A stretch of 4,070 nt of DNA from a virus. Its lineage: Duplodnaviria > Heunggongvirae > Uroviricota > Caudoviricetes. This document shows, piece after piece, positions 1,594-3,145 of the stretch. Location of the stretch: IMG/VR virus record IMGVR_UViG_2645727743_000017, one strand, 5' to 3'. Under the pieces are notes generated by a model. That model searched no databases. It saw only the letters and a program-made list of their open reading frames with translations, and was not told the DNA's origin. The first letter of the stretch is position 1, and each line of letters begins with the position of its first letter. The translations under genes were made by a program, and so were the position numbers.

Positions 1594-1690
1594 CTTCATC
1601 GTCACATAGCTGGTAACCAATGGCCTGAAGAGACGTTTGGGTGACAAGAAGCATAGGTATTAACAATAACTTTCATGGTGATACGAATCA

Positions 1691-2233
1691 GTGGCTAAAA
1701 AAGGCGACTTTAAGCCTACCCAGAAAGAGGTTGACCAAGCTATTACTCGCTTGAAAAAAGTAACTTTTAGCGGAGTTTCGTGGACCGGAAGTGAGGGACG
1801 AACCCCAATCTGGTTTAAATTGGATCTCAAAGCTTTTGATGAAATTGGCAACCCAATCACAGGCATAAGATTTATGCTTCACTGGCGTTCTCCTATCGTT
1901 GAAGGGGTGGATATAGTGAAGCTTTCATTTGTGATGTTTCTTCATGACAGGCGCATTTACGCGCTTGACCCGTACCCTGCGCATAACAAGTCACACCGTA
2001 ATAAATCTATAGTGCACCATCCAGATTTTGTTGAGGTGGCTCGAGGTCCTCACTATCACATGTACTTCGAATCAGCTGGGGAAGAAATTGCACTCAAGCT
2101 TGAAACGAACATCAAGCCAGATGATTTTTTTGGCTACTGGAATTATTTTTGCGAGGCGCTTAATATCATATATGAAGGCAGCCCACCTTTACCGAATCAA
2201 GATAAATCAGGTCAGCTATCATGGGAAATGTAA
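1691..2233 (+). CDS. Hypothetical protein (180 aa, GTG start), first gene of a two-gene cargo module at the rexA-equivalent position; no family recognised
   Basis: ORF in the track; GGTGA Shine-Dalgarno 9 nt upstream; same strand as cI and 97 bp downstream of it. No transmembrane-like stretch seen. Contains a His-rich segment HHPDFVEVARGPHYHMYF. Confidence 0.75.
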   Translation: MAKKGDFKPTQKEVDQAITRLKKVTFSGVSWTGSEGRTPIWFKLDLKAFDEIGNPITGIRFMLHWRSPIVEGVDIVKLSFVMFLHDRRIYALDPYPAHNKSHRNKSIVHHPDFVEVARGPHYHMYFESAGEEIALKLETNIKPDDFFGYWNYFCEALNIIYEGSPPLPNQDKSGQLSWEM

Positions 2234-2997
2234 CGTGTTCAACAGTCATATCTAAGCTCGGGTTTGAATGCCACCCAATGAGCGACACGTTGCTGCGCGT
2301 TATTAGTCCCTTCACATACTACGATGATTGTGAGCAGATAAGCGTATTCGTTCAAGAGATGAGTGGTCAGTATAGGGTTACAGACTACTGCGATACATTG
2401 ATGAATATTGAATCACGCGGCATCCACCTGACTAAAAAGAAAATTGATCTGATCAGGTCATCACTCGCTTCGCAAGGAATTTCATTAAATGACTCTGGAG
2501 AGATATCTGCGTGGGCAGATGAGTCGTCCGTTGGACAGGTAACTGCAAATGTTATTCGTGGTGGGATTCTTGCATCCGCCCAAACTGCTGATTGGTATGC
2601 TGAGGTCAAAGACGATAAGTTCGAAAAATGTGTAATCAGTTACTTAAAATCAGCAGGGCTTGGGAAGCGACTAGCCTTAAAGGAAAAAGTGAAAGGTATT
2701 AGTGGGCATAACATTACTGTTCCGTTAACGCTAAGGAATGAGTCTCGACTAATACCACCAAAACGCGGGTTTACGGTAAGCCTTGCCAGCAGTAAAGGAT
2801 GGAATACTGCCCACTCAACAGTTGGGAAGATTGTTGACTTAAGTCAGGTCGTTCCTGACATAAACAATAGATTTGTAATAGTTGACAGCGATGGGTTAAC
2901 ACCTGAGCTACAGCAACTATCACTACTATTTAATGATACCGCACGAGTGTTGCCATTCCATACCAGAGACTCTTGGATTGACTCTCTGGTAGCCTAG
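2221..2997 (+). CDS. Hypothetical protein (258 aa), second cargo gene, start overlapping the stop of the upstream gene by 13 nt; no family recognised
   Basis: ORF in the track; AGGT Shine-Dalgarno-like 9 nt upstream of the ATG at 2221; an alternative start at 2278 cannot be excluded. No long hydrophobic segment. Followed immediately by a strong terminator. Confidence 0.8.
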   Translation: MGNVTCSTVISKLGFECHPMSDTLLRVISPFTYYDDCEQISVFVQEMSGQYRVTDYCDTLMNIESRGIHLTKKKIDLIRSSLASQGISLNDSGEISAWADESSVGQVTANVIRGGILASAQTADWYAEVKDDKFEKCVISYLKSAGLGKRLALKEKVKGISGHNITVPLTLRNESRLIPPKRGFTVSLASSKGWNTAHSTVGKIVDLSQVVPDINNRFVIVDSDGLTPELQQLSLLFNDTARVLPFHTRDSWIDSLVA

Positions 2998-3000
2998 AAA

Positions 3001-3028
3001 AACCCGGCCTCTGCGCCGGGTTTTCTTT
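3001..3028 (+). terminator. Rho-independent terminator ending the cI-cargo operon (stem CCCGGC/GCCGGG, loop CTCTGC, then TTTTCTTT)
   Basis: Read directly: GC-rich 6-bp stem flanked by an A-tract upstream and a T-tract downstream (possibly bidirectional), 3 nt after the stop of the 258-aa ORF. Confidence 0.85.
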
Positions 3029-3145
3029 ACCTCACGTTCGCCTCCCCTATTTAACATCCGCATATGTGCTAACCCACGAACTAACACGCCAGCAATACAG
3101 TCCTTTCTCCCCTACAGACCAATCTTCAATCTTTGCAAAAATAAA

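Follow-up and report, generated by a model that had tools for sequence, protein, structure and literature searches.

The 4,070-nucleotide stretch of DNA analyzed here (hereafter the window; IMG/VR virus record IMGVR_UViG_2645727743_000017) is the immunity region of a lambdoid Escherichia coli prophage. Between the repressor gene cI and the OL/PL operator and promoter region it carries two overlapping genes, here called A (180 amino acids, aa) and B (258 aa). The best-supported reading is that they form a divergent branch of a pairing between DUF6978 and DUF1828/DUF1829 proteins resembling the defence candidate PDC-M24, analogous to RexAB in position and allelic to the kinase Stk. We consider it about an even chance that the pair is an autonomous cassette, carried behind the lysogeny repressor and probably cotranscribed with cI, that protects the lysogen and its prophage from other phages by exclusion or abortive infection. 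Three independent circumstantial lines lead to this defence reading: the allelism of the slot, the remote homology to PDC-M24, and the scores given by the DefensePredictor pipeline to close homologues. A previous sequence-only reading of the window had already proposed an exclusion or abortive-infection system, of an undescribed type. The proposed function is still the best reading; the novelty has to be given up, as close homologues already appear in published tables of predicted defence genes. Two published pipelines have flagged the pair itself or its relatives, and the candidate as such is therefore not new.

In lambda, the two genes located immediately 3' of cI, rexA and rexB, end before OL/PL and are expressed in the lysogen, which makes this the classic exclusion position. 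The A-B pair lies exactly between cI and OL/PL, that is, at the rexAB position, since the operator pairs and a PL-like promoter flank it accordingly. The cI repressor gene adjoins it upstream (886-1593, plus strand; Peptidase_S24, E = 3.5e-16; HTH_3, E = 1.2e-5) and is annotated as an S24 family peptidase. Gene A (1691-2233, plus strand; RefSeq WP_024167659.1) begins with a GTG codon, 8 nucleotides (nt) downstream of a Shine-Dalgarno-like GGTGAT, and overlaps gene B (2221-2997, plus strand; RefSeq WP_000528775.1) by 13 nt (ATGGGAAATGTAA; 2221-2233, plus strand), which couples their translation. An intrinsic terminator, consisting of a hairpin plus a U-run, closes the cI-A-B unit (2998-3030, plus strand): the hairpin CCCGGC-CUCUGC-GCCGGG, followed by UUUUCUUU, has a folding energy of -21.4 kcal/mol and a z-score of -3.6 relative to shuffled sequences. 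The window contains exactly four copies of the operator motif WACT-N3-AGTW (at 825, 849, 3200 and 3224), versus 0.21 expected by chance. Two copies, 24 bp apart, form the OR operators between a cro-like gene and cI (825-859); the other two, also 24 bp apart, form the OL operators (3200-3210 and 3224-3234, plus strand) and overlap the PL-like promoter (3212-3240, plus strand), which faces N. The gene for this antiterminator, of the P22 gp24 type, sets the downstream boundary of the slot (3441-3782, plus strand; PF25694 N_peptide, E = 5.2e-26). The sequence-only reading had described this layout correctly: the two open reading frames (ORFs), which are annotated in RefSeq, their overlap, their common strand with cI, the strong terminator right after B and the rexAB-equivalent slot were all recovered.

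The spacer between cI and A measures 97 nt (1594-1690, plus strand), versus only 37-38 nt in 38 related loci. A simple site scan of the plus strand found neither a terminator-like nor a promoter-like site in this interval; the same scan overlooked the terminator 3' of B. In strain ECO2947, an IS3-family copy lies within the cI-to-A spacer (L002, 9552-10765) and could uncouple the pair from PRM. GC content is flat, at about 0.41-0.46 over the pair and its flanks, with no compositional signature. The only Rfam match was to the Pseudomonas rnk leader (2934-3031, plus strand; 23.2 bits versus a gathering threshold of 55, E = 0.92), most likely a chance match to the terminator hairpin.

What stands behind the repressor varies among prophages sharing the same cI allele. 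This allele (full-length identity of at least 96%) is present in 427 genomes, and the pair in just 61. The O157:H7 strain FRIK944 has, behind the same allele, a DUF3024 gene that corresponds to PDC-S43 of PADLOC (E = 4e-41), a gene for a 153-aa protein, and a Ser/Thr kinase gene of the validated PD-T4-6 family (E = 1e-37). The cI of these O157:H7 kinase-cassette prophages is 96.3% identical in DNA to that of the window, and their Cro protein is identical. The finding of this kinase bears out the statement of the sequence-only reading that phage 933W carries a different exclusion gene, stk, in this place. The 933W-type Stk/PD-T4-6 cassette thus shares with the pair its slot, a nearly identical cI and an identical Cro, whereas the proteins are unrelated: this is allelic replacement, not homology. 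In MS20675, a lone gene for an unrelated 299-aa protein follows the same cI allele (WP_000076840.1; L111, 4338-5237), and this protein matched no Pfam or PADLOC model. A look at the slot in related prophages, suggested by the sequence-only reading, returned the pair, the kinase cassette or the 299-aa protein behind one cI allele, and the cI-to-OL slot behaves as an exchangeable defence hotspot. The DUF3024 gene (PDC-S43) recurs in the repressor-downstream slot (L007, 5052-5393; L112, 4269-4610); in Providencia-type loci it separates cI from A, and in the O157:H7 prophage it precedes the stk-type cassette.

The likeness to lambda RexAB is a positional analogy only, namely the placing in the cI operon, after cI itself and ahead of OL/PL. 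The proteins are of different sizes, and whereas RexB is a polytopic membrane protein, A and B have no membrane segment: the maximum 19-residue Kyte-Doolittle mean is 1.22 in A and 0.79 in B, with no transmembrane-like stretch. Homology was rejected, as no RexA or RexB model in Pfam and PADLOC matched A or B at E <= 1. The earlier judgement that the pair resembles neither Rex protein is thereby upheld.

Sequence comparisons indicate that A and B are both real genes under strong purifying selection, with dN/dS ratios of about 0.06 (A) and 0.02 (B) relative to a 91%-identical relative. Both belong to populated PHROG families of unknown function (E = 9e-73 for A and 6e-119 for B). Neither protein matched NCBIfam, their profiles found no match in a PDB sequence search at E <= 10, and no Pfam kinase domain was found in either. 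The sequence-only reading could assign neither to a family, which no longer holds: profile searches settle the family of B and give A a weak affiliation, with no structural match for the latter.

Residues 30-112 of B match the Pfam family DUF1828 (PF08861) with 40.9 bits, above the cut-off of 22 (E = 2.6e-10). This N-terminal domain is secretion-chaperone/YbjN-like, and the C-terminal domain is probably DUF1829 (PF08862), a member of the PD-(D/E)xK clan, with a non-canonical site. HMMER, run exhaustively over 1.84 billion representatives, showed the B family to be small: 213 members were found, nearly all of about 250 aa. Among the 112 full-length members, D55 is invariant, and conservation extends to G159-x-[ST]-G-[HKR]163, including S161, to [KR]203, to [DE]206 (112/112) and to [DE]222 (100/112). 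The same members lack both the canonical beta-2 Asp and the beta-3 (D/E)xK: position 163 is H, K or R, position 168 is P in 68 of the 112 and D in 24, and position 184, Gln or Phe in most members, is Gln in 40 and D or E in 31. The fold of the C-terminal domain is probably nuclease-like, and its site is either non-canonical or inactive.

Protein A is best treated as a remote, weak relative of DUF6978 (PF22398), going by a match of 21.1 bits, below the gathering cut-off of 29.6, over residues 100-159 only; a precomputed PF22398 hit is present on a few of its close homologues. A confident predicted model of A had no match among the solved or viral structures searched. The hallmark of the family is a G-P-H-Y-H-M core (residues 121-126; 2051-2068, plus strand) inside a His-rich segment. 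A likeness to HIT proteins, once suggested for this segment, was rejected, as A does not combine the H-x-H-x-H-x-x motif with the alpha+beta fold of that family. The G-x-H-x-H core is kept in every lineage examined, and H121 and H123 are invariant among Enterobacterales and in the partners from Pseudomonas, Burkholderia and Helicobacter, where hhalign aligns them too. They are part of a catalytic-looking set (Arg88, His121-x-His123 and Asn158) that is kept across all lineages. The C-terminal tail (P-L-P-x-x-D-x-S-G-Q...; 2177-2233, plus strand) is predicted to be disordered yet is conserved. Disorder is predicted for the last 18 residues or so, with a pLDDT of about 41 at residues 172-180, and the pattern P-L-P-x-x-[DE]-x-S-G-Q is kept across clades through different codons; S173, G174 and Q175 in particular are invariant across clades while their codons differ. 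Only the final eight or so codons of A are frozen at the nucleotide level, because of the overlap with B. The disordered tail is a possible docking peptide for B.

The two genes travel together. We surveyed 94 sources: the window itself, genomes and phages with annotation, one genome for each species, and contigs from IMG/VR. B occurs in all 94, and in 93 of them an A homologue immediately precedes it, the exception being gp48 of Burkholderia phage phi644-2, too divergent for the profile; hhalign aligns gp48 with A over its full length with the HxH in register (52%, E = 1e-4). Distant A-like partners, likewise immediately 5' of B, were also aligned from a Helicobacter pametensis prophage (hhalign 91%, E = 1e-6) and from a metagenomic contig (94%, E = 1e-7); as MAFFT misaligned the HxH in the four most distant A-like partners, the hhalign alignments were used instead. 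In a Pseudomonas Detrevirus, an A-like ORF lacking annotation lies upstream of B. The A/B junction is tight throughout, with the 13-nt overlap in the window and, elsewhere, overlaps of 1-4 nt or a 3-nt gap. Small adjacent genes with such strict co-occurrence have the arrangement typical of type II toxin-antitoxin (TA) systems. An enterobacterial-type A/B junction, with 57% identity to B, also occurs on a 518-nt contig labelled Actinomadura rugatobispora (L013, 1-518), which is probably an assembly contamination.

Across this range the pair usually follows a repressor gene. Of the 92 loci with enough upstream sequence, 79 have an HTH-S24 repressor gene as the nearest upstream ORF on the same strand; the repressors located 5' of the pair fall into seven different sequence clusters, and in 8 loci a DUF3024 gene stands between repressor and A. 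The repressor-A-B order is found in the sequenced temperate phages ev207, ev017, PhiR63_2 and PhiR57_1, in an Stx1a-converting phage, and also in Pseudomonas, Burkholderia and Helicobacter prophages. An immunity region identical to that of the window lies, in other strains, within an apparently complete prophage next to mdtA; together with the relatives in sequenced temperate phages, this makes the former view of the region as a prophage remnant incidental. In the O104:H4 outbreak lineage (C227-11, 2009EL-2050, 2009EL-2071 and others), the pair occurs with 98.9% DNA identity (L095, 14001-15307) in another lambdoid prophage, which is integrated at ynfG and also encodes RelE/ParE, Doc and HokD toxins. 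Among 5,426 complete E. coli genomes, the clade of the window is present in 61 and a second clade (clade 2) in 241, always as one chromosomal copy. The pair is thus found in up to 5.6% of these genomes; among its carriers are ATCC 11775, the type strain, with the clade-2 version, and the O104:H4 lineage. On one low-GC metagenomic contig it lies away from any repressor, which argues that it is an autonomous module; about 300 nt 3' of it, the same contig has a tubulin-like ORF of 437 aa starting MREIITICVGGAGVRIGAKFWE (L110, 4092-5405). Pseudomonas phage vB_PaD_phPA-G has an unannotated A-like gene and an extra 216-aa ORF between its cI-like repressor and the pair (L004, 3680-5004), with a diversity-generating retroelement (Avd plus reverse transcriptase) a few kb 3' of the pair (L004, 8939-10657). 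A megablast search of the phage collection with the pair gave no match, the homologues being reached by tblastn, and viral scans with single proteins of two distant B representatives gave none either.

Two published sets of predictions bear on the pair. The PDC systems are 145 candidates nominated by their embedding in BREX, DISARM or type I restriction-modification (RM) loci (Payne et al. 2024, bioRxiv 10.1101/2024.01.29.577857). B matches the PADLOC model PDC-M24B over its N-terminal 100 residues (E = 6e-7), and in relatives of B the match spans the whole profile (E = 1e-9 to 5e-13); A matches PDC-M24A partially, over its last 50 or so residues (E = 1.5e-3). PDC-M24 shares with the pair the A-then-B order, the adjacency and similar sizes (about 146-150 aa and 255 aa). 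It differs in that the matches are remote and in its genomic setting, BREX, DISARM or type I RM loci versus prophage immunity regions here. In the DefensePredictor study, the clade-2 pair appears among the 'predicted novel defense genes' (PMC13092281, Tables S5 and S10), with log-odds of 4.9-5.4 for WP_001062368 and 5.6-6.3 for WP_000968518/7 at a strict cut-off of 4. This pair, from phages ev207, ev017 and PhiR63_2, occupies an identical cI-to-N slot; its A and B are about 40% and 51% identical to those of the window. The exact proteins of the window were not found in the accessible part of these tables; the cluster representative for A, WP_001074607, is the O104:H4 copy of the window's clade (PMC13092281).

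One validated system with DUF1829 is HipAD/DS-6, a two-gene E. coli defence system made of a HipA-like kinase and a DUF3037-DUF1829 protein. Its DUF1829 domain, of the PD-(D/E)xK clan like the probable C-terminal domain of B, is located on its non-toxin partner; the system differs from the pair in that the other partner is a HipA kinase rather than a DUF6978-like protein and in that DUF1829 is fused to DUF3037, not to DUF1828. The DUF1829 protein, DS-6B, is a proposed antitoxin-like partner for which DNA binding is weakly predicted.

From these elements a mechanism can be sketched. The genes cI, A and B would be transcribed together in the lysogen, and A and B would form a complex. B would serve as sensor and regulator, its DUF1828 domain holding a peptide, possibly the conserved disordered tail of A, with a possible nucleic-acid-binding role for its PD-(D/E)xK-like DUF1829 domain; A would be the enzymatic effector, acting through its Arg/His-x-His/Asn constellation, and be released or activated on infection. 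We assign these roles with low confidence. A is placed as the effector because its R/H/H/N set is kept across lineages and the protein sequence of its tail is conserved, and B as the non-effector because DUF1829 sits on the non-toxin partner of HipAD/DS-6 and the canonical nuclease residues are absent from B. A bolder version is doubtful: A would found an enzyme family with a new fold, built on the Arg88, His121-x-His123 and Asn158 site, and would be an abortive-infection toxin gripped through its tail by the DUF1828 domain of B until B senses a phage cue and releases it, the whole being carried behind repressors from Enterobacterales to Helicobacter.

Several points weigh against a defence role as set out above. 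PDC-M24 is explicitly an untested candidate (bioRxiv 10.1101/2024.01.29.577857), only 45% of the units tested in the DefensePredictor study protected, and neither the homologues of the pair nor DUF1828 is among the cloned or validated units listed in its accessible part (PMC13092281). The accessible literature yielded no experimental evidence of defence by the pair, and nothing functional was found on PDC-M24, DUF1828 or DUF6978. The PADLOC and DUF6978 matches of A are marginal (E of about 1e-3, and below the Pfam cut-off) and confined to its C-terminal third. Expression of the pair from PRM is something we infer, a repressor-adjacent position is equally expected for any cargo expressed in lysogeny, and the counts over 92 loci overstate independence because many contigs are near-identical. 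The roles may also be reversed within defence, with B as a non-canonical PD-(D/E)xK nuclease regulated by its chaperone-like N-terminal domain and A as sensor, activator or inhibitor: in validated defence systems, effectors are most often PD-(D/E)xK domains, and the conserved K203, D206 and [DE]222 of B could form a non-canonical nuclease site. We find this arrangement unlikely, given that B is without the canonical beta-2 Asp and beta-3 (D/E)xK, that the sole validated DUF1829 protein, DS-6B, is a proposed antitoxin-like partner and not a toxin, and that the more enzyme-like invariant residues belong to A.

Two further explanations dispense with a direct anti-phage role. As a toxin-antitoxin-type addiction module, the pair would kill cells that have lost the prophage or its immunity region and would thereby stabilize it. 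Two small genes that overlap, share a strand and strictly co-occur are what such a module would look like; A stays the partner of B even outside a repressor context, the pair persists beside cI in a prophage with an IS-disrupted O gene, and prophages with the pair also have other TA modules. That a tblastn search of 72,556 plasmids, a setting in which addiction modules are usually frequent, gave no match to the B of the window (E <= 1e-3), and that the slot is also used by a known defence kinase in allelic prophages, make such a module improbable; it would in any case overlap the defence reading, because many TA systems act in defence. A lysogeny accessory, in which B would bind protein or DNA and A would contribute its own activity to modulate the repressor switch, prophage induction or the physiology of the host, would account for the deep conservation of the repressor-A-B order in gamma- and beta-proteobacterial and Campylobacterota prophages, and a nuclease-like domain without catalytic residues could bind DNA, as is weakly predicted for DS-6B. 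We attach little probability to it: at least seven unrelated repressor types go with the cassette, which makes a specific interaction with a particular repressor or operator less likely, the pair is also found away from any repressor on the metagenomic contig, distant relatives lie inside RM/BREX loci, and the allelic cargo of the slot is a defence kinase.

The remainder of the window is that of a lambdoid immunity region interrupted at one end. Positions 1-98 (minus strand) are the end of an IS3-family element, with 100% identical copies annotated 'IS3 family transposase', which truncates the phage O gene about 46 nt into its sequence; the earlier statement that O is IS-disrupted is accurate for this genome. 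The element is multicopy (23,441 places in 3,575 E. coli genomes), and related prophages align to the window from base 99 on, not before. Next come cII (177-473, minus strand; Phage_CII, E = 8e-34) and a cro-like HTH gene (580-807/840, minus strand). A promoter-like site (119-147, plus strand; TTGAGT-17-CATAAT with an extended TG) lies antisense to the 3' end of cII and, together with a terminator-like hairpin (201-228, plus strand), resembles the lambda OOP antisense RNA. Between PL and the N gene, a hairpin GCGCTGACAAAGCGC (3307-3321, plus strand) has what we take to be a match to the P22-type boxB (nutL), in agreement with the P22 gp24-like arginine-rich N-terminus of N, GNAKTRRHERRRKLAIERD.

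If active, the pair would be an anti-phage system with a new mechanism, located in the repressor operon of lambdoid prophages. B joins a chaperone-like domain to a putative degenerate nuclease-like domain that is so far found in only one validated system (HipAD), and the cI-to-OL slot could be mined systematically for cargo.

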